A stretch of DNA of 24,000 bases from Marinilactibacillus piezotolerans (GCF_900114235.1 NZ_FOSJ01000026.1:1-24000), one strand, 5' to 3'; shown: positions 1 through 14,316, counted from the first letter of the stretch. Notes: generated from the letters alone by a model not told the origin. A program made the numbers and translations.

Positions 1-15
1 CCTGAATAATTCATA
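1..15. repeat. IS left terminal inverted repeat (IRL)
   Basis: CCTGAATAATTCATA is a perfect reverse-complement match to 1665-1679. Confidence 0.85.
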
Positions 16-157
16 CTTTTTAATTGAAACCGTCTGAAACTGCCTAACGGCAGTCTGATAATTACTTTTTTATTTTCACCCCTTAAGTGATGAAAAAAGA
101 ACCCCATTCTGCTATGGTAAAGGTGACGAAACCAACCATAAGAAAGGAGTTCTTCTC

Positions 158-1477
158 ATGACTAGATTACACGAAAATCAAGTTAAATTCAATTCAAATA
201 TCACTATTTCACATACTGGTGGTCGTCTATCAAGTGATTCGGGGTTAGTCCTGGTTAAAGAATTGATGAATACCTTCGGCTTTTCACAATTAGCTAAACA
301 ATGGCTCCATATCACAGATCATCGGGCTTATTTTACCCATCATAACTTAGCGATATTGGAACAGCTTATTATGCAGTTAATTGCTGGTTACTCGGCAGAC
401 TCATCAGCTAATCTATTAAGACAGGATCCAGTCTTTCAAGCTGTACTCGGTAAAAAGCAGTTGGCCTCACAATCGTCAATCTCACGGTTTCTGGATCGTT
501 TCACCGAGGAGAACATCGATCAACTCCAAGCATTAAATCAGTCGCTGATTAATAAAGCGCGTTTGATTCGCAATGATACCGAGTTAATCATTGATGTCGA
601 TTCCACACATTCGGATACCTTTGGACGCCAAGAACAAACAGATTATAATGCCCATTATCAAACCTACGGCTATCACCCATTAGTTGCCTTTGACGGACTG
701 ACCGGAGATTTCTTAAAAGCTGAACTGCGTTCAGGCAATCAGTACACATCTAAAGGGGTAAAAGCTTTTATCGCCCCGCTGTTATACCAATACAAGAGCA
801 CGTTACCTCATACCGAGATATTGGTTCGGGGGGACAGCGGCTTCGCCACACCAGAGGTGTATGAGTCTTGTGAAGCAACTGAAAGCCAGTACGTTATCCG
901 ATTAAAGAGCAATCGGAGGTTAAGTCAGTTAGCTGAACACTCTGTTCTTTACGGGGACAATCAAGAATGGGAAGAGCGAGAAGTGCAGTATTTTTCACTA
1001 CCTTATCAAGCACAATCCTGGTCGAAACCCCGTCGTGTCTGTATACGTTCCGTCCGTGAAGGAGGAGAATTGCTTTTTCATCATGCGTTTATTGTGACTA
1101 ATCTATCCGACAACGTCTCGCCTGAAGTCATATTTTCTCTTTACGGCAAGCGTGGAACAATGGAAAATTTCATCAAAGAAGCGAAAGGTGGCTTTTACTT
1201 CGATAAAACAGATAGCCCGCGTTTCTTAGAAAATCATGTCAGAATGATGATCAGTGTCCTTGCATACAACCTCGTCAATTTTTTAAAAACCATTGGTTTT
1301 GATAAAGTGAACCAGGGCATGACGATCCATTCCATCCGGCTGACATTGCTTAAAGTAGCCGGTAAACTTGTTCAAACTGGGAGACAGGTCTATCTCAAAC
1401 TGTCAAGCTATCATGTGTATCAAACTGAATTTTATAAGGTTTTTGAACGCCTGCGGCGATCCAAACAATGGATTTAG
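158..1477 (+). CDS. IS1380-family DDE transposase
   Basis: 439 aa. SD AAGGAG lies about 8 nt upstream of the ATG. Acidic-triad contexts are present: IIDVDSTHSD, VRGDSGFATPE and MENFIKEAKGGF. Size and N-terminal sequence (SHTGGRLSSDSGL) are typical of IS1380/ISSpn5-like transposases. Confidence 0.9.
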   Translation: MTRLHENQVKFNSNITISHTGGRLSSDSGLVLVKELMNTFGFSQLAKQWLHITDHRAYFTHHNLAILEQLIMQLIAGYSADSSANLLRQDPVFQAVLGKKQLASQSSISRFLDRFTEENIDQLQALNQSLINKARLIRNDTELIIDVDSTHSDTFGRQEQTDYNAHYQTYGYHPLVAFDGLTGDFLKAELRSGNQYTSKGVKAFIAPLLYQYKSTLPHTEILVRGDSGFATPEVYESCEATESQYVIRLKSNRRLSQLAEHSVLYGDNQEWEEREVQYFSLPYQAQSWSKPRRVCIRSVREGGELLFHHAFIVTNLSDNVSPEVIFSLYGKRGTMENFIKEAKGGFYFDKTDSPRFLENHVRMMISVLAYNLVNFLKTIGFDKVNQGMTIHSIRLTLLKVAGKLVQTGRQVYLKLSSYHVYQTEFYKVFERLRRSKQWI

Positions 1478-1664
1478 ACTAGTTATCACACAAATTTTTA
1501 AACCGATTTTTTTCAAGGGATTCGTCTGCCCTTAAATAGACAAATTTTTTTATTATGACCTTCTTCCGTAGGCATCCTGTTCGAAAACACATTATTTTGG
1601 AAGGAAGTATCTGCCTAATTTAAAAATGGGCAATTTCTTCAAAAAAAAAGCTTGAATTTAGATC

Positions 1665-1679
1665 TATGAATTATTCAGG
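1665..1679. repeat. IS right terminal inverted repeat (IRR)
   Basis: TATGAATTATTCAGG is the reverse complement of 1-15. It contains the ATG (1666-1668) that the ORF track uses as the start of the downstream ORF. Confidence 0.85.
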
Positions 1680-2904
1680 TAAAAATATAAATTTAAAAAA
1701 ATTATCTAAATCAGAAAAGCTAATATATCATGCAAGTCAATTTTATAGTAATAAGCTACTAGGATACATTGAAGGTGATAATGATCCTGAAAGTCAATAC
1801 AAAAAGTTATCTTGTTTATTGGATCTGTTTTTAAGTAATTTTAAATTAATGTATATTGAAACAGATGAAATTAATGAAGCATTTGTTATTTTCGAAACAT
1901 TGAATGCTAGAGGTAAAGATTTAGAAACTTCTGATCTTTTAAAAAATCATGTTTTTAGATCTTCAAATAACAAAATCAAGATTATAAAAGTTCAATGGAA
2001 CCAAGTTATAGAGAATTTAGGAAATGTTGATCCAACAAGATTTATCAGACATTATTGGAATTCGCAACATAAATTTGTTAGAGAAAAAGATTTATATAAA
2101 GGTATTCGAAAAGCTATTAATACGCCTAAAAAAGTTGAAGATTTGATGGAAGATTTAGTTGGACTTTCTGATTTATATACATCCTTAAGCTATCCTGAAA
2201 ATTTTGTTTATTTTGAAAATTCTACTTTAATTGAACGTACAAAAGAGATCAGTAATTTGGGAGCAAGTTCTTATTTCCCAATTATGCTAGCACTAGAGAA
2301 CGAAAAGTATGACGAAATTGACATAGATAAAATAATGGAAAGTATTGAATGCTTAATAGTTAGAAACTTTGTAGTAGCAGGAAAAACAGCTAATAAATTC
2401 GAAGTTGAATTTGCAAAAATTGCATATCAAATTACGCAACATCAATTTGATGAAATAGATGAAATTTTAAGTGCTATAAAAAATTTGACTATTAATGATG
2501 ATGAATTCAGTAATGACTTTAAAATTTTCACTACTAAAAAAACCAATACTATTAGATATATATTAAGAAAGGTTCATAATAATTCTAATACTGAAACTAG
2601 AATAATCAATGATAACAATACAATACACATAGAACATATTATGCCTAAAAAAACGCAACATTGGGATATATCTAAAGACTTGCATGATGAATATCTGTGG
2701 AAATTAGGAAATCTGACATTGTTAGGACATGAATACAATTGAAGCGCCACCAATAGTAACTTTGAATTAAAAAAAGATGTTTACAGACAGTCTGATATAC
2801 CTATGACTCAAAACTTGATTGAATACAAAGATTGGACTATTAAAGACATAGAAGAGAGACAAGAATCTTTTATTGATGTTGCACTACAAATTTGGAAAAA
2901 ATAA
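1680..2904 (+). pseudogene. GmrSD-like DUF262/DUF1524 type IV restriction-family gene, 5'-truncated by the IS and carrying an in-frame TGA at 2740-2742
   Basis: The translation contains the DUF262 C-terminal motif FVIFETLNARGKDLETSDLLKN and the DUF1524 His-Me finger motif HIEHIMPK...LGNLTLL. The N-terminal DUF262 core (DGQQR region) is missing. The first five codons (MNYSG) derive from the IS IRR. After TGA the same frame continues for 53 codons (SATNSNFELKKDVY...QIWKK) to TAA at 2902-2904. Confidence 0.8.
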
Positions 2905-3049
2905 ACATTCATTCTTTGTTATATCACTTAAGATAATATAAGAAGATCATTTTAAAGCATGTAGTTTTCATAAATAGCACTAAGATGAGTGAAATTTGTA
3001 TGTGATGTGTTAACATCTGTAAATCTATTTATAAGAGGAGCAAATACTT

Positions 3050-3565
3050 ATGAATTTTAAATCTGTCGATTCACTGCAACCTATAGTAAATGTAATTAAC
3101 GAAACTAACCAGGCTGTTCAAGACAAATCAAGAACGATGATAGACAGCCCATTATCTGACATGGTATCCGGAGCTTTAGGAGCGGGTATTGGGGGAGCAG
3201 TTTCTTTTGCCGGCTTATACGGGCTAGGTACTGTTGGATTGAGTGCAGTTGGTATCACATCTGGATTAGCTACGGCAGGAAGTATCGTTGGTGGAGGAAT
3301 GGTATCCGGAGTTTTTGTATTGGCGGCTCCAGTTGCAATTATTGCTGGAGGTGGGATTGCATTAAATGCTAAACGAAAAAAAAATAAATTAAAAAGAGAA
3401 AAGGAACGGCTTTACCAGGAAGCTTTAAAAAAACATAATGCAGTGATTGAAGCTTTAAAGGAAGAAGTAAATGCAACAAATGATAGGATGGAATACTTGA
3501 ATGGATTAAACATTTTATTACAACAAGCGATTAAGGAACTAAGGTCAGATTTAGAGGGAGTCTAA
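3050..3565 (+). CDS. Small membrane protein with a glycine-zipper TM region and a C-terminal coiled coil; no recognised family
   Basis: 171 aa. SD AGAGGAG lies 9 nt upstream. Residues ~38-105 are Gly/Ala-rich hydrophobic (GALGAGIGGAVSFAGLYGLGTVGLSAVGITSGLATAGSIVGGGMVSGVFVLAAPVAIIAGGGIAL) with repeated GxxxG. A basic stop-transfer stretch follows (KRKKNKLKREKER), then a heptad-like helical tail. Confidence 0.7.
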   Translation: MNFKSVDSLQPIVNVINETNQAVQDKSRTMIDSPLSDMVSGALGAGIGGAVSFAGLYGLGTVGLSAVGITSGLATAGSIVGGGMVSGVFVLAAPVAIIAGGGIALNAKRKKNKLKREKERLYQEALKKHNAVIEALKEEVNATNDRMEYLNGLNILLQQAIKELRSDLEGV

Positions 3566-4927
3566 ATGAAAAAGTATCAATATTCCGAATCAGAGAAAGA
3601 ACTAAATAAAGTTTTGCATTATCATGATAATGTTTTAAACAGCATTCCTTCTCTTAATCCAAATAAAATAAAAATGGGTCAAAACATCGCTTCAAGTGAA
3701 GAGCTGCTAAAGAAATTAAGTTTTAGTCAGCAAGTTTGTGAGATGGGCAGTAATTTATCTCATACAGAAAAGAAAATAAAAATCTCAAATCTTCGATCTT
3801 GGGACGAGATATTAAAAGATGCTCATAACTTGGTACCTGATGAAGTAGATTTACAGTCATTGTTTATAGAAGAAGAATTACAATCCAACGAACGGTACAT
3901 AAATCAATTAAGAAATGACTTCAATTCTCTTAATAAGTTGGATGAGACTGACTATTTAATTTGTGTTGCTGCAGGTATTCTAGCCGCATCAGTTGATATC
4001 TTTTTAGATGGGATTCCTAAAAAAACAAAAGAAGGTGTCACAGCTGGACCGTTGTCTGATTACATTCGAAATAAATTTGATGAAGCGATTCCTCAAGAAA
4101 AAATAAAAGAGTTGGAAAGAAAGTTTAAAGTTCCTTATGATCTATCAACGAATTATAAATTAGATGAATATGTTGATGGATTGAGTAGTTGGTTTCACAG
4201 GTATCATTCGCTTGGTCATGATCCAATATTAGGATTTGTTTTTGGAGTGTTTGATGTGATGACGGGCAGATTTAGTGCGATAGACAAAAAAGGAAAAGTA
4301 ATTTCACAAATCTTATCTGATGTACCCGAAGGTATTGATATATTTCAAGCTATTGGTAAAGTTTTTGGTCATATGAAATCTGACGTCAATACTTCCATGG
4401 GTTTACCAGCTCCTTTGATGACTTTATTTAATATGTTTCAATTTGGAAAAATAGAAAAAGAGAAGTTAACTATTGCAGAAGTTGCAAGAGGAATGTATGC
4501 ACAAGGTTACGATTTTAAACATTTCTGTTCGATGTCTATATCCACTATGATTATTGAAGTGGTTGTCAGATTGTCTTATTGTATAAAGAGATTAAACGAA
4601 GGTTACAGTTTAAAAGACTCTATTCCAGTAAATGGATTTGGTAGGAAATTGCCTAAATTGCAGACAATGCTTTTTATAGCCCATTCCATAAATACAGCTT
4701 CTAATGCCGGAAAAATTTACTTTACAAAGAATCCATTAGCTATTAATTATACAGAATGGCTAGCCTTTACTAAATACTCTGTTTCGCAATTAAAATGGAC
4801 ACTTCGTGATAAACCGGTACTTAGAGATCAGTATGTAGAAAGTAAACTTCTAGAGGAATGGAATGATCTTCAGTCGGTAATTAATGATATGTGGACAGCA
4901 ACAGAAGAAGATTATATAGTTCTTTAA
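3566..4927 (+). CDS. Hypothetical 453-aa protein with hydrophobic segments; no recognisable family
   Basis: The ATG abuts the upstream stop (TAAATG). SD GAGGGAG sits inside the end of the upstream gene, indicating translational coupling. It has a hydrophobic segment (LICVAAGILAASVDIFL) and several amphipathic or hydrophobic stretches. Possible His-containing motifs are HRYHSLGHDP and GHMKSD. Confidence 0.65.
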   Translation: MKKYQYSESEKELNKVLHYHDNVLNSIPSLNPNKIKMGQNIASSEELLKKLSFSQQVCEMGSNLSHTEKKIKISNLRSWDEILKDAHNLVPDEVDLQSLFIEEELQSNERYINQLRNDFNSLNKLDETDYLICVAAGILAASVDIFLDGIPKKTKEGVTAGPLSDYIRNKFDEAIPQEKIKELERKFKVPYDLSTNYKLDEYVDGLSSWFHRYHSLGHDPILGFVFGVFDVMTGRFSAIDKKGKVISQILSDVPEGIDIFQAIGKVFGHMKSDVNTSMGLPAPLMTLFNMFQFGKIEKEKLTIAEVARGMYAQGYDFKHFCSMSISTMIIEVVVRLSYCIKRLNEGYSLKDSIPVNGFGRKLPKLQTMLFIAHSINTASNAGKIYFTKNPLAINYTEWLAFTKYSVSQLKWTLRDKPVLRDQYVESKLLEEWNDLQSVINDMWTATEEDYIVL

Positions 4928-6027
4928 TCGTAAAACGTTTAGTGGGACTACTAAGTATAACAATCAATCAGTTTGCTGTAGACAGTATGATTGAGCTGAA
5001 GAAGTCATATGAGTTACTTAAAAATCGTTTAGGAAGAATTCCTTATCTAAGAGATTTTGAAGAACAACAGACTTTAGATCCAGTATTGATTGCAGGGAAG
5101 AAGCATAATTATTATGGATTTTTAGATGCAATAAAAGAGAGCGAAAGAGAACTCAGTAAAGAAACATCAGCTTATTTAACCTTTGCTACAAGAGAGCTAT
5201 TAACGGGTATAAGAAGACATGAATTAATTTTGATGCTTAAACTGATTAATGAGCCAAATAAATTGTTTACGGTAGCTGAATTAAAACAATTCTTTTATGA
5301 TCGCGGATTATTAAATGACGAAGAAACGATTAATTCAGTCATACGTACGCTTGATTTGAGCTTCTTTACTGGTCAAGAAGCTAAAACATATAAAGGTTCT
5401 GAGATAATCGAGTTTCAAGGTGAAGAAATAGGTTTAACAATTGAATTCAAAGAGGCACTCAAGAATGAATACTTTGTCAAATTAATTAAAGATACGCTAA
5501 TAACGAGTAAGTTAAAGTCCAAACTATTTGATCAAACGACTCCATTGACCAGATTTCAGAAGTATCGTCGTAAAGATGTTATCAGGTTACTAAAGTGGGA
5601 ACAGCAGATGATCAATCAGAATATTGGTGGTTACACAGATTTCAAAGACCAGTTTGTTATTTTCGTTACGCTGGAAAAAGGGGACGACTTTGCAGGTGCT
5701 CAAATGGCGTATGAAGATGAGCTGCTAGATGCTTCCACCATGAAGTGGTTCACAAAAGCACCACGAACCCTAAACTCCCCAGAAGTTATCAAGCTGAAAA
5801 ATTCAGACGACTATGATATTCGTGTGTTCGTTAAAAAGTCAGATGATGAAGGATCGGATTTCTACTATTTAGGAGAAGTAAAACCGAAGCTGGATACCAT
5901 CACGCAATTAAAGAAACCAGACAGTAATGGTCACATGAAAAAAGTTGTCGAGATGCAGCTGGAATTTTTGCAGCCAATTGAAACTAAATTGTATCGCTAT
6001 TTGCAGTTTAATATCAACAATGTATAA
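4891..6027 (+). CDS. DUF3427-type protein lacking the usual N-terminal helicase/nuclease modules (start uncertain: GTG 4891, GTG 4942 or ATG 4987)
   Basis: The C-terminal ~250 aa (…RFQKYRRKDVIRLL…FVIFVTLEKGDDFAGAQMAYEDELLDASTMKWFTKAPRTLNSPEV…DFYYLGEV) resembles, from memory, the DUF3427 domain found at the C terminus of ResIII/DEAD helicase defence-island proteins. None of the candidate starts has a convincing SD. The frame opens at 4888 and overlaps the upstream gene in the -1 frame. Confidence 0.6.
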   Translation: MDSNRRRLYSSLIVKRLVGLLSITINQFAVDSMIELKKSYELLKNRLGRIPYLRDFEEQQTLDPVLIAGKKHNYYGFLDAIKESERELSKETSAYLTFATRELLTGIRRHELILMLKLINEPNKLFTVAELKQFFYDRGLLNDEETINSVIRTLDLSFFTGQEAKTYKGSEIIEFQGEEIGLTIEFKEALKNEYFVKLIKDTLITSKLKSKLFDQTTPLTRFQKYRRKDVIRLLKWEQQMINQNIGGYTDFKDQFVIFVTLEKGDDFAGAQMAYEDELLDASTMKWFTKAPRTLNSPEVIKLKNSDDYDIRVFVKKSDDEGSDFYYLGEVKPKLDTITQLKKPDSNGHMKKVVEMQLEFLQPIETKLYRYLQFNINNV

Positions 6028-6070
6028 GTAAAGTAAGTATAGGGTATAGGCAAAAGGAGATAAAACTATA

Positions 6071-6985
6071 TTGGTAAATGACCTTGTAAAACAGGAACTA
6101 GATGGAGTGAAATTTAAGCTAAGAGCCAAAGAAGATTTTTCATTTTTAAGTCAATTTGGGAAAGTTTTTTGCGTTTTTGACCAGAATGATTCTGGGAATA
6201 TAAGTTTTGGAGTAATCAATAATAAACTAGAAAAGTTCTTTATAAAAGTAGCTGGAGCTCAAACGCTTGAGTTTGCTGGTAATACTAATGAAGCAGTTGA
6301 AGCATTGAAAAATACTATAGAGATTTATTCAGATTTAAAACACCCTAGTTTAATTAATATGATTTCATCTGGTGATTATAACAATCTATTTTATATTGTA
6401 TTTCGTTGGGCAGAAGGGGATTGTTTATATGATCACTGGAACTTTGATTACTATCATAATCATCCGGAAGTAGAGTCGCCTAGAAAAAGATTTGCTAAAA
6501 TATCGAATGAAGATAAGCTTGAAACAGCGAAACAGATTCTTGAATTCATGGCATTTGTTGAATCAAAAGGATATGTAGCTGTTGATTTTTATGATGGAAG
6601 TTTGATGTATGACTTCAAAAGCAATCAACTAACCATCTGCGATATTGATCTGTTTAAAAAAAGTCCAGTACTAAATGACATAGGTTCAGACTACTGGGGA
6701 ACAAAAAGAATGAAAGCGCCAGAGGAATATCATCTGAATGCAATAATAGATTCAAGAACAAATGTGTTTACTATAGGTGCATTATTTTTCAATCTATTTG
6801 GAAATTACTCAGGTGAACTATTGCGACAAATCTATACGGAAAATAAATTTATACCTTTAGAAGAAAAAAATTGGGCATTATCTTCAGACTTGTATAATGT
6901 AGCATTGGATGCAGTAAAAGAAGAGCCTGAAAAACGATATGCTACTGTTAAAGAATTTAAAGATGAATGGATTAATAAAGCATAA
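6071..6985 (+). CDS. Stand-alone eukaryotic-like Ser/Thr protein kinase-fold protein (Stk2-like candidate)
   Basis: 304 aa with a TTG start and SD AAAGGAG about 12 nt upstream. Kinase subdomain-like motifs are present: FFIKVAG (VAIK Lys), LKHPSLINM, catalytic-loop-like YVAVDFYDGSLMYD, DFG-like ICDIDLF, APE-like MKAPEE, TNVFTIGALFFNLF (subdomain IX) and EKRYATVKEF (subdomain XI). There are no PASTA, TM or other domains. Confidence 0.7.
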   Translation: MVNDLVKQELDGVKFKLRAKEDFSFLSQFGKVFCVFDQNDSGNISFGVINNKLEKFFIKVAGAQTLEFAGNTNEAVEALKNTIEIYSDLKHPSLINMISSGDYNNLFYIVFRWAEGDCLYDHWNFDYYHNHPEVESPRKRFAKISNEDKLETAKQILEFMAFVESKGYVAVDFYDGSLMYDFKSNQLTICDIDLFKKSPVLNDIGSDYWGTKRMKAPEEYHLNAIIDSRTNVFTIGALFFNLFGNYSGELLRQIYTENKFIPLEEKNWALSSDLYNVALDAVKEEPEKRYATVKEFKDEWINKA

Positions 6986-7003
6986 TTTTATAATTAATGA
7001 AAT

Positions 7004-7043
7004 ACCCAATTTACTATTAAAGTAGGTTGGGTGTTTTTATTTT
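7004..7043 (+). terminator. Rho-independent terminator closing the 3050-6985 block
   Basis: The stem is ACCCAATTTACT (7004-7015) paired with AGTAGGTTGGGT (7021-7032), with G-U pairs and a 5-nt loop, followed by GTTTTTATTTT. Confidence 0.7.
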
Positions 7044-7169
7044 CATTGTAGAATCTTAAGATAAATATTTCACTTCAAATTATTTGGGTGCAGATCATGT
7101 CCCCCGTTATCCTTTCGATTACGATATACTATGGTTACAATCAATCTTGGCCAGGGGAGATTAAATAAA

Positions 7170-7964
7170 ATGGAAAATAACAGATTGAATTTGATTTACA
7201 AGTTGAATCATATTGCCAATGAGTTAGAAGTCGGAACTGTAGAATATGAATTAGCAAGATTTTTCTTAGAGAACTTTAAAAGCGTTAACAAATGGAATAT
7301 CTATCAAATTGCAGAAGACAATAATGTATCAAGGGCATCAGTTCGCAGATTCGCTAAGCAACTAGGCTATGCAAACTTTTCAGATATGAAAGCTCATGTT
7401 CAGGAGTTTGATGACGGGATCAATGATTTTCAACAATTCTATGGGGTAGAGGGCTTCTTAGATGTATTAGTCTCAAACATTCAGGCTTTGATGAAAGAGC
7501 TGAGTATCCGAATGAATACGCAGGAAGTGGATCGATTAAATAAACTCATCAATGAAAATAAAGAAGTCATTATTTTCACTTCCAGTAATATCGCAGGTTT
7601 AGTGAAGACATTTCAGCAGCGAATGATTATTTTTGGTAAGAGAATTACTTTGTTGACTGAGCTGGATGATTTGAAAAAATTTAAAAATGTGAAAGAAAAA
7701 CCACTGATTATTGTCGTTTCAATTTCTGGACTTTTGCTTTCAACGATCCTATCCGAACTCAGAGAGATCAATGCTACAAAAATATTATTTACAAACAATC
7801 GTAACCCGATTTACAATCAGGATTTCGACAAACTTTATCATTTGAGTTCGCAGCATCATGAAAGTGATATAAACGATTTGCTTTATTACACCTATGGAAT
7901 CAATTTTGTATTAGATCTGTTATTCAATGGATATTTAATGAAGTATAAAAGGGAAGGAATTTAA
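7170..7964 (+). CDS. MurR/RpiR-family transcriptional regulator (HTH_6 + SIS domain)
   Basis: The N-terminal HTH VSRASVRRFAKQLGYANFSDMK is typical of RpiR. The C-terminal region is SIS-like (EVIIFTSSNIAG…LIIVVSISG). I prefer ATG 7170 (SD GGGGAG 11 nt upstream) to the track start at 7131. Confidence 0.8.
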   Translation: MENNRLNLIYKLNHIANELEVGTVEYELARFFLENFKSVNKWNIYQIAEDNNVSRASVRRFAKQLGYANFSDMKAHVQEFDDGINDFQQFYGVEGFLDVLVSNIQALMKELSIRMNTQEVDRLNKLINENKEVIIFTSSNIAGLVKTFQQRMIIFGKRITLLTELDDLKKFKNVKEKPLIIVVSISGLLLSTILSELREINATKILFTNNRNPIYNQDFDKLYHLSSQHHESDINDLLYYTYGINFVLDLLFNGYLMKYKREGI

Positions 7965-7966
7965 TT

Positions 7967-9424
7967 ATGCATTATAAAGAGAATCCTACATTTCCAAAAG
8001 ATTTTTTATGGGGCGCTTCAAGCGCTGCCTGGCAAGTTGAAGGAGCAGTAGCAGAGGACGGACGTGCTCCGGCAATTATTGATTTAAATAGTAAAAAGAA
8101 AAAACCGTACGCTGATAATTCAATTGCTTCAGATCATTACCATTTTTATAAAGAAGATGTGCAATTGATGAAAGAAGCTGGATTCACTTCGTATAGATTC
8201 TCTATTGCTTGGCCTAGAATTTATCCAGATAACTCAGGTGTGCCCAATCAATTGGGAATCGACTTTTACAATAATCTAATCGATGAATTGATCGATAATG
8301 GTATTACACCAATTGTCACTTTATATCATTATGATATGCCAGTTTGGGTCGATAAAGAATTTAACGGGTGGTATGACCGTGGAATCATAGATGCGTTTGA
8401 TCAGTATGTTAGAACGTGTTTCAACGAATTTGGGGACCGCGTTAAGTATTGGCTAGCGATCAACGAACAGAATATGCAAATCGTCTATGGTGACTGGTTA
8501 GGTGTCTGTAAATACCCAGAAACCTGGTTCAAAGATAAATGGAAAGTAAACCATATCATGAATCTATGTCACTCAAAAGCGGTTATTGCTTGTCATGAAT
8601 TGGTAGAAGGCGGAAAGATCGGTCCTGTTCCGGGAATGGTTCCTTTCTATCCAGAATCTGCTAATCCCCAGGACCAAATTGCCGCAATGAATGCGGAAGA
8701 ATTGACTGAAAAAATCTGGAACGACTTCAATGCAAACCGAGAATATAACGGCTTCATTAAACGTTACTGGAAAGAACATGACATTGATCCAGATATTCGC
8801 CCTGGGGATATGGAATTAGTTGCGCAGGCAGAAATTGATTTCTTTGGAATCAACTGTTACAGAAGTAACGTAGCCAAAGCTTCTCCAGCGGATTCTGAGT
8901 ATCAGGAAATCGGCTTGAATAAATCAGGTGAAAAGGGTAATTTCGTTTATCCAAACTATCCAGGAATCTTTGAACAAACGAATAATCCATTTGTTGAAAC
9001 AACTGACTGGGATTGGGAAATTGACCCAGTAGCGATGCGTTATCTTTTAAGATATATGGAAGATCACTATCACTTGCCAATGGTTATTACAGAAAACGGC
9101 TATGGAGCGCATGAAACATTAGGGGAAGATGGGAAAGTTCATGACGAAGAACGAATCAAATTCCTTAAAGAAAACATTTATCAAATTGGACTAGCCATCG
9201 AAGATGGAGCAAAAGTTTTCGGCTATAATCCTTGGTCATTCACAGACTTATTAAGTACAGGGAACGGAATGGCTAAACGATACGGATTAGTTTATATCAA
9301 TACAACAGATGAAGATGTACTGGACTTGAAACGAATCAAGAAGGATTCATACTACTGGTATAAAGAAGTCATCGCTTCTAATGGCGCAAAAGTAAGTGAA
9401 GAAACAATTGATTTTTCAGAATGA
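7967..9424 (+). CDS. Glycoside hydrolase family 1, 6-phospho-beta-glucosidase
   Basis: 485 aa. GH1 signatures are present: FLWGASSAAWQVEG, TLYHYDMP, acid/base INEQN, nucleophile ITENG, and C-terminal NPWSFTDLLS…KRYGLVYI, which is typical of phospho-beta-glucosidases. Confidence 0.9.
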   Translation: MHYKENPTFPKDFLWGASSAAWQVEGAVAEDGRAPAIIDLNSKKKKPYADNSIASDHYHFYKEDVQLMKEAGFTSYRFSIAWPRIYPDNSGVPNQLGIDFYNNLIDELIDNGITPIVTLYHYDMPVWVDKEFNGWYDRGIIDAFDQYVRTCFNEFGDRVKYWLAINEQNMQIVYGDWLGVCKYPETWFKDKWKVNHIMNLCHSKAVIACHELVEGGKIGPVPGMVPFYPESANPQDQIAAMNAEELTEKIWNDFNANREYNGFIKRYWKEHDIDPDIRPGDMELVAQAEIDFFGINCYRSNVAKASPADSEYQEIGLNKSGEKGNFVYPNYPGIFEQTNNPFVETTDWDWEIDPVAMRYLLRYMEDHYHLPMVITENGYGAHETLGEDGKVHDEERIKFLKENIYQIGLAIEDGAKVFGYNPWSFTDLLSTGNGMAKRYGLVYINTTDEDVLDLKRIKKDSYYWYKEVIASNGAKVSEETIDFSE

Positions 9425-14262: not shown

Positions 14263-14316
14263 TGAGTAAGTAGATAAACACATTAAAGTTAGCTTGCTTA
14301 CTAAGTGGAGGGCATT

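Follow-up and report, generated by a model that had tools for sequence, protein, structure and literature searches.

The DUF3427 reading frame and its relatives

We analyzed a stretch of 24,000 nucleotides (nt) from Marinilactibacillus piezotolerans (NZ_FOSJ01000026.1:1-24000; hereafter the window, with positions counted from its first letter), focusing on an open reading frame (ORF) that encodes a DUF3427 domain and lies between a two-gene Bunzi-like cassette and a protein kinase gene (Table 1). The frame of this ORF is open from 4888, directly after an in-frame TGA at 4885-4887, and holds three candidate starts (GTG 4891, GTG 4942, and ATG 4987). It overlaps the upstream gene (3566-4927, ending with TAA at 4925-4927) by 40 nt in the -1 frame. 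These positions had been given by a first-pass annotation made from the sequence alone, and all of them were exact on recheck. The same annotation stated that none of the possible starts has a Shine-Dalgarno sequence, which is borne out by the anti-Shine-Dalgarno duplex energies at the three starts (-3.1, +0.5, and +0.5 kcal/mol, respectively), compared to -5.6 to -11.8 kcal/mol at the well-placed starts of other window genes. Three readings of the ORF had been offered: a new stand-alone DUF3427 architecture, the downstream part of a single gene split by a frameshift, and a recombination remnant of a helicase gene. Our findings point to the last of these, and we consider it very probable that the ORF is a pseudogene fragment, specifically a 5'-truncated relic of a type IV restriction gene of the SauUSI family.

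Table 1. Coordinates of the DUF3427 ORF, its parts, and the surrounding features of the window.
Feature	Position	Strand	Basis or remark
Two-gene Bunzi-like cassette (171-residue glycine-rich membrane protein and 453-residue BnzB-like protein)	3050..4927	+	Now fills the site of the lost 5' part
5' extension without homology (codons 1-23 of the called ORF)	4888..4962	+	Homology in 28 related genomes begins later
Called ORF	4891-6027	+	Open frame, 378 codons
Junction, 34 nt	4929..4962	+	Similar to neither the Bunzi-like cassette nor the SauUSI-like gene
Putative 3' relic of a SauUSI-like gene: coupler (DUF8090/PF26350) and DUF3427/SRA-like target recognition domain, native stop codon included	4963..6027	+	Residues 624-975 of the intact orthologue
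Stand-alone protein kinase, not part of the relic	6071..6985	+	Pfam Pkinase, E 5e-9
Intrinsic terminator hairpin	6999..7037	+	Only convincing one between 3050 and 7100

The domain content of the ORF corresponds to the C-terminal part of SauUSI. Pfam DUF3427 (PF11907) matches ORF residues 98-371 over nearly the full length of the profile (positions 1-279 of 280, E 7.7e-69), as the first-pass annotation had proposed, and the same scan found no second Pfam domain in the ORF, that is, no PLDc_2, ResIII, or Helicase_C. The precomputed Pfam annotation of the ORF protein lists PF26350 (DUF8090) together with PF11907. In PADLOC, the ORF covers positions 623-951 of the 953-position model for a 'type IV methyl-directed restriction enzyme', and a search of solved structures returned a single match, to residues 623-951 of 7CLG (E 3e-41). 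This entry is the crystal structure of SauUSI, a type IV modification-dependent restriction enzyme of Staphylococcus aureus (PMC3141236, PMC7913695). SauUSI consists of a PLD nuclease (residues 1-191), an SF2 ATPase, an alpha-helical coupler (618-805), and an SRA-like target recognition domain (TRD; 806-953), which flips 5-methylcytosine (5mC) into a pocket (PMC7913695). Given the span of the match relative to these boundaries, the ORF comprises only the coupler and the SRA-like TRD with its pocket, and the N-terminal PLD nuclease and the SF2 ATPase (ResIII and Helicase_C) are missing from it. With nuclease and ATPase absent, ATP-dependent cleavage of DNA containing 5mC or 5-hydroxymethylcytosine (5hmC) is expected to have been lost.

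A six-frame search of 60 related genomes with the ORF gave matches in 28. The homology starts at ORF residue 22-30 in every one of these 28 genomes, and in 27 of them the matching segment is the C-terminal end of a frame that stays open for 946-1032 residues; the lone shorter frame (G022, 422 residues) runs into a contig end. For this clade, the first-pass annotation was right in its background assumption that DUF3427 is the C-terminal module of PLD-nuclease helicases of ~950 residues, and also in noting that the ORF has no helicase, given that its homology is confined to ~352 residues (24-375) and begins past the helicase part. The closest relative, G004, belongs to the same genus and carries an intact ORF of 975 residues with PLDc_2, ResIII, Helicase_C, and DUF3427, of which residues 22-971 align end to end with SauUSI (7CLG residues 6-951, E 8e-259). 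Residues 24-373 of the window ORF align without gaps to residues 624-973 of this protein, with 85% amino acid identity. At the nucleotide level, window 4963-6010 is collinear with the G004 locus (80% identity), as is window 7001-8183 (86%), which holds the terminator, an rpiR-type regulator gene, and the start of a GH1 glycosidase gene. Because these two blocks are collinear with G004, the restriction gene sat at this position in the common ancestor. Within the genus, the locus is shared with G004 only and is absent in the other five congeners. An intact PLD-helicase-DUF3427 gene at the syntenic position in G004, set beside a truncated copy in the window, supports the remnant proposed as the third reading and is, on the annotation's own terms, the outcome that defeats a novel architecture.

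The boundary of this homology is sharp. When aligned to full-length helicase-DUF3427 proteins, as the first-pass annotation had suggested, the ORF becomes homologous abruptly at nt 4963 (codon 24), and the base-by-base comparison with G004 shows random identity up to 4962 and ~85% identity from 4963, which places a breakpoint at 4962/4963. The junction sequence 5' of it is unique in the genome, a 38-nt junction string had no match in metagenome contigs, and no microhomology or repeat is evident at the breakpoint. Neither tblastn nor blastn with G004 residues 1-623 gave a match at E<=1e-3 in the 124 contigs of this 99.99%-complete assembly, and the NUDIX gene that precedes the restriction gene in G004 is likewise absent from the window's genome. 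The missing 5' part, together with the NUDIX gene, is therefore nowhere in the genome, which argues for a deletion or replacement and not a simple insertion. An exact-protein look-up gave no record besides the ORF itself. ORF codons 1-23 match nothing; GTG 4891 and GTG 4942 both fall inside this extension, and ATG 4987 lies just within the relic. The open stretch of 25 codons at 4888-4962 is unremarkable, as we estimate that ~14% of such stretches would be open by chance at ~32% G+C, and the extension is a chance continuation of the frame back into the 3' end of the upstream gene.

An exhaustive profile-free search with the ORF returned 677 matches, many of which are ~940-1070 residues long and align from ~600 to the end, and the remaining matches are shorter, as is usual for genes called on short contigs from metagenomes. 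The matches of similar length to the ORF are few, and most of them lie on short contigs or are marked partial. We found no conserved family of similar-length orthologues that are complete at both ends and lack the helicase part. The short ORFs that we inspected in complete genomes were those of Oceanobacillus kimchii (341 residues), Paenibacillus sp. JCM 10914 (374 residues), and Arcanobacterium wilhelmae (419 residues). All three are DUF8090+DUF3427 ORFs that directly follow an ORF of 559-621 residues with PLD, ResIII, and Helicase_C, and the split genes as a whole span L029:3132-6026, L030:3257-6125, and L033:3307-6260, respectively. The split is caused by an in-frame TAA in O. kimchii and by frameshifts in the other two species, the one in Arcanobacterium falling in the RGLRK/VIDF region of the helicase. 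These three split genes suggest either frequent inactivation of the family or sequencing errors in those records. Taken together with the search results, the short DUF3427 ORFs of this clade appear to be a recurrent decay product and not an architecture. The new stand-alone architecture of the first reading is not supported, since no conserved family of this length was found and the short ORFs examined are broken full-length genes.

In addition, each of the four loci that we inspected, from Bacillota and Actinomycetota, has a small NUDIX gene 5' of the SauUSI-like gene (L014:13075-13476 in G004, L029:2717-3109, L030:2857-3255, and L033:1730-2119). It is directly adjacent in three of the four; in Arcanobacterium two small ORFs intervene, one of them AbiEii-like. 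NUDIX may be a conserved accessory gene of the SauUSI-like gene.

The Bunzi-like cassette and the surrounding genes

The gene that overlaps the ORF (3566-4927) is a BnzB homologue (PADLOC E 1.8e-66, profile positions 29-500 of 504), and the gene before it (3050-3565) has a partial PADLOC match to BnzA that covers the membrane segment only (positions 311-419 of 544). Window 3033-4928 shares 72% nucleotide identity with Oceanobacillus halophilus L015:5468-7348, where we find a pair of genes encoding 171 and 449 residues. The similarity extends from the ribosome-binding site of the first gene to the stop codon of the second, and it ends at 4928. On either side of the O. halophilus pair, the adjacent genes lie on the opposite strand, and the same gene pair occurs in a Clostridiales metagenome-assembled genome (MAG); in neither of these two loci does the pair have a DUF3427 or kinase neighbour. 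Judged by these homologues, the cassette is independent of the DUF3427 ORF and is a self-contained module. Across the cassette loci (window 3050-4927, L015:5485-7350, and L016:5423-7377), the A component has only 171-193 residues, made up of a glycine-rich membrane segment and a coiled coil, without the TerB domain that has been described in BnzA. Conserved as it is in O. halophilus and the Clostridiales MAG, the pair may represent a short-A variant of Bunzi.

On the other side of the ORF, the slot that matches the kinase gene holds an LD-carboxypeptidase (Peptidase_S66) gene in G004, and synteny with G004 resumes at the terminator. Window 6011-7000, compared with L014 of G004, forms a second mosaic junction in the locus, and the kinase has weak PADLOC matches to mad6, MkoA, and PD-T4-6. 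The SauUSI-like loci that we retrieved from relatives, extending 1.5 kb past the gene, contained no homologue of the kinase. At the 5' end of the window (1-2904), a GmrSD/HEC-06-type gene is interrupted by an insertion sequence (IS) element that encodes a DDE_Tnp_1_4 transposase; what is left of the GmrSD frame has an in-frame TGA (2740-2742) as well and extends to 2904. Contigs C38 and C51 are identical over their first 1683 nt. The neighbourhood as a whole is a decaying defence island, in which the GmrSD gene has been inactivated twice. Further downstream, no Shine-Dalgarno sequence precedes the start of the longest ORF at 7131 (rpiR-type regulator) or at 14305 (ABC transporter), and the internal ATG 7173 has a good one. 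The true starts of these genes are therefore probably 3' of the mechanical ORF starts.

Proposed history of the locus and competing explanations

The comparisons above establish where homology begins, that G004 has an intact syntenic orthologue, that the assembly lacks the 5' part, and that the upstream cassette is independent. We infer the order and mechanism of the rearrangement, as well as the loss of function, as follows. The ancestral gene would have had ~975 codons and stood upstream of the rpiR/beta-glucosidase operon, where it still stands in the congener. Given the end-to-end homology of the congener's gene, the ancestral enzyme was presumably SauUSI-like, with a TRD that binds S5mCNGS-type sites, ATP-driven translocation, and PLD-mediated cleavage (PMC7913695). 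Illegitimate recombination or deletion in a variable defence island may then have removed the first ~623 codons, and with them the PLD nuclease and the SF2 ATPase, in an event that would have left the Bunzi-like cassette 34 nt 5' of the breakpoint at 4962/4963, next to codon 624. The frame opening at 4888, the gene overlap, and the missing ribosome-binding site would be by-products of this junction and not a mechanism of expression. The product, if it is made at all, should be unable to restrict DNA, because it lacks both nuclease and motor.

Several observations weigh against a dead fragment. The frame of the relic is fully open over its 378 codons, with no accelerated protein evolution. Over 350 aligned codons between the window and G004, nonsynonymous divergence (dN) is 0.086 and synonymous divergence (dS) ~1.8, which is saturated, giving an omega of 0.047. 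In comparison with nine outgroups, 7-13 amino acid changes are unique to the window copy and 8-15 to the intact G004 copy, and the two copies depart equally often from conserved columns. In our own reading of the alignment to 7CLG, the equivalents of the methylcytosine-pocket residues Tyr831, Phe841, Trp868, and Asp858 are unchanged, and that of Ile842 is replaced by Val, which is conservative. Moreover, there is no terminator between the relic and the upstream cassette, nor anywhere else in 3050-6999; because no terminator separates the two, we predict that the relic is probably transcribed by read-through. As there is no excess of amino acid change, the fragment seems to have spent almost no history under neutral evolution. 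This leaves two options, a very recent truncation or continued selection on the piece; conservation fits both equally well and cannot settle between them. Recency is the favoured option, because there is no ribosome-binding site, no partner gene, and no conserved stand-alone homologue.

These same observations are what would be expected if the fragment were still expressed, co-transcribed with the cassette and the kinase gene, and acted as a stand-alone binder of DNA containing 5mC or 5hmC, possibly as a sensor for a neighbouring system. Translation would then be inefficient, starting at ATG 4987 or re-initiating after termination at the upstream stop. Besides the intact frame, the unaccelerated rate, the conserved pocket, and the missing terminator, the position of the truncation within a few residues of the coupler start fits such a role. 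We nevertheless consider it unlikely. None of the starts has a Shine-Dalgarno sequence, stand-alone orthologues do not form a family and the short ORFs examined are broken full-length genes, Bunzi-like cassettes of other genomes have no DUF3427 neighbour, and the SauUSI-like loci fetched from relatives have no kinase homologue, while a recent truncation explains the conservation equally well. More specifically, a coupler and SRA fragment co-opted as a low-level read-through product, which senses modified phage DNA for the membrane or kinase effectors or shields sites, seems quite improbable to us. Systems in which a separate specificity protein stands beside a PLD-helicase protein do exist (PMC6765204). 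A split two-subunit SauUSI-like system of this type was considered and rejected for the window, given that the assembly holds no PLD-helicase partner and the upstream neighbour of the ORF is BnzB-like.

A truncated gene could also be an artefact of assembly, in which case the contig would be chimeric at 4929-4962 and the real genome would carry an intact SauUSI-like gene, contrary to the relic that we propose. The assembly is indeed fragmented into 124 contigs, and the contig begins inside a repeated IS element. However, the junction is unique and free of repeats on which an assembler might go wrong, and the 5' part that an intact gene should have contributed to the assembly, 1.87 kb, is found in none of the contigs, although the assembly is 99.99% complete. 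A chimera is thus very improbable. Even less credible, to the point of being nearly negligible, is the second reading of the first-pass annotation, in which 3566-4927 and 4891-6027 form one gene split by a frameshift, or its variant in which programmed -1 frameshifting yields a BnzB-DUF3427 fusion. The 40-nt overlap in the -1 frame is compatible with it, but the BnzB match already reaches profile position 500 of 504, the stop codon of the window gene is also where the BnzB-like relatives end, and the similarity of the cassette stops there. Codons 1-23 of the downstream frame match nothing, and the DUF3427 relatives continue 5' into a helicase and not into BnzB. No slippery heptamer was seen in 4888-4927 when this interval was read by eye. 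The single-gene reading is refuted, since neither homology crosses the overlap at 4888-4927: BnzB similarity ends at 4928, and similarity to the DUF3427 genes begins at 4963.

Implications and comparison with known systems

We also asked whether the loss of the type IV enzyme is accompanied by a C5 cytosine methyltransferase. In the window's genome (G000), contig C96:500-4417 (L034) encodes a Dcm-superfamily C5 cytosine methyltransferase of 406 residues, located between an AIPR-domain gene and a putative endonuclease gene, the latter with a sub-threshold match to the NgoFVII C-terminal B3-like domain. No C5 methyltransferase was found in G004, the congener with the intact SauUSI-like gene. Among the 60 relatives, near-full-length methyltransferase matches occur in 8 of the 28 genomes with a SauUSI-like gene and in 14 of the 32 without one, a weak and non-significant trend among genomes that are not independent, from which we draw no conclusion. 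A conflict between methylation and type IV restriction is possible in this genome.

The relic of a SauUSI-type gene that we propose would belong to an already known enzyme family and represent no new architecture but the usual decay of a gene in a defence island. It would provide an example of defence-island turnover, in which a Bunzi-like system displaces the catalytic two-thirds of a type IV restriction gene. For annotation, a 'DUF3427 domain-containing protein' of ~350-420 residues in this clade can be taken as a sign of a broken SauUSI-type gene. For those who wish to transform or engineer the organism, we predict that a SauUSI-type barrier to cytosine-methylated DNA is absent.

SauUSI is one of the closest known systems. 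The relic aligns with its coupler and SRA-like TRD and retains four pocket residues, whereas neither the ORF nor the rest of the genome has the PLD nuclease (1-191) or the SF2 ATPase of SauUSI. The McaZI and YenY4I groups, in which DUF3427 is fused to PD-(D/E)XK (PMC6765204), resemble the relic in their DUF3427 modification-sensing domain and in their location in defence islands. In contrast to the window ORF, which has no catalytic domain, these enzymes carry their own nuclease in the same polypeptide. With Bunzi (BnzA/BnzB; bioRxiv 10.1101/2022.05.11.491447), the locus shares a clear BnzB homologue, the gene at 3566-4927. It differs from Bunzi in that the 171-residue A-like partner lacks the TerB domain of BnzA, and in that Bunzi has no DUF3427 component, the DUF3427 ORF here being adjacent, as we see it, solely through rearrangement. 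Further close parallels are the split SauUSI-like genes of O. kimchii, Paenibacillus sp. JCM 10914, and A. wilhelmae, whose decay products, of 341-419 residues with DUF8090 and DUF3427, carry the annotation of a DUF3427-domain or hypothetical protein. There, the PLD-helicase part persists immediately 5' of the short ORF, whereas in the window the 5' part appears to have been physically removed and replaced.

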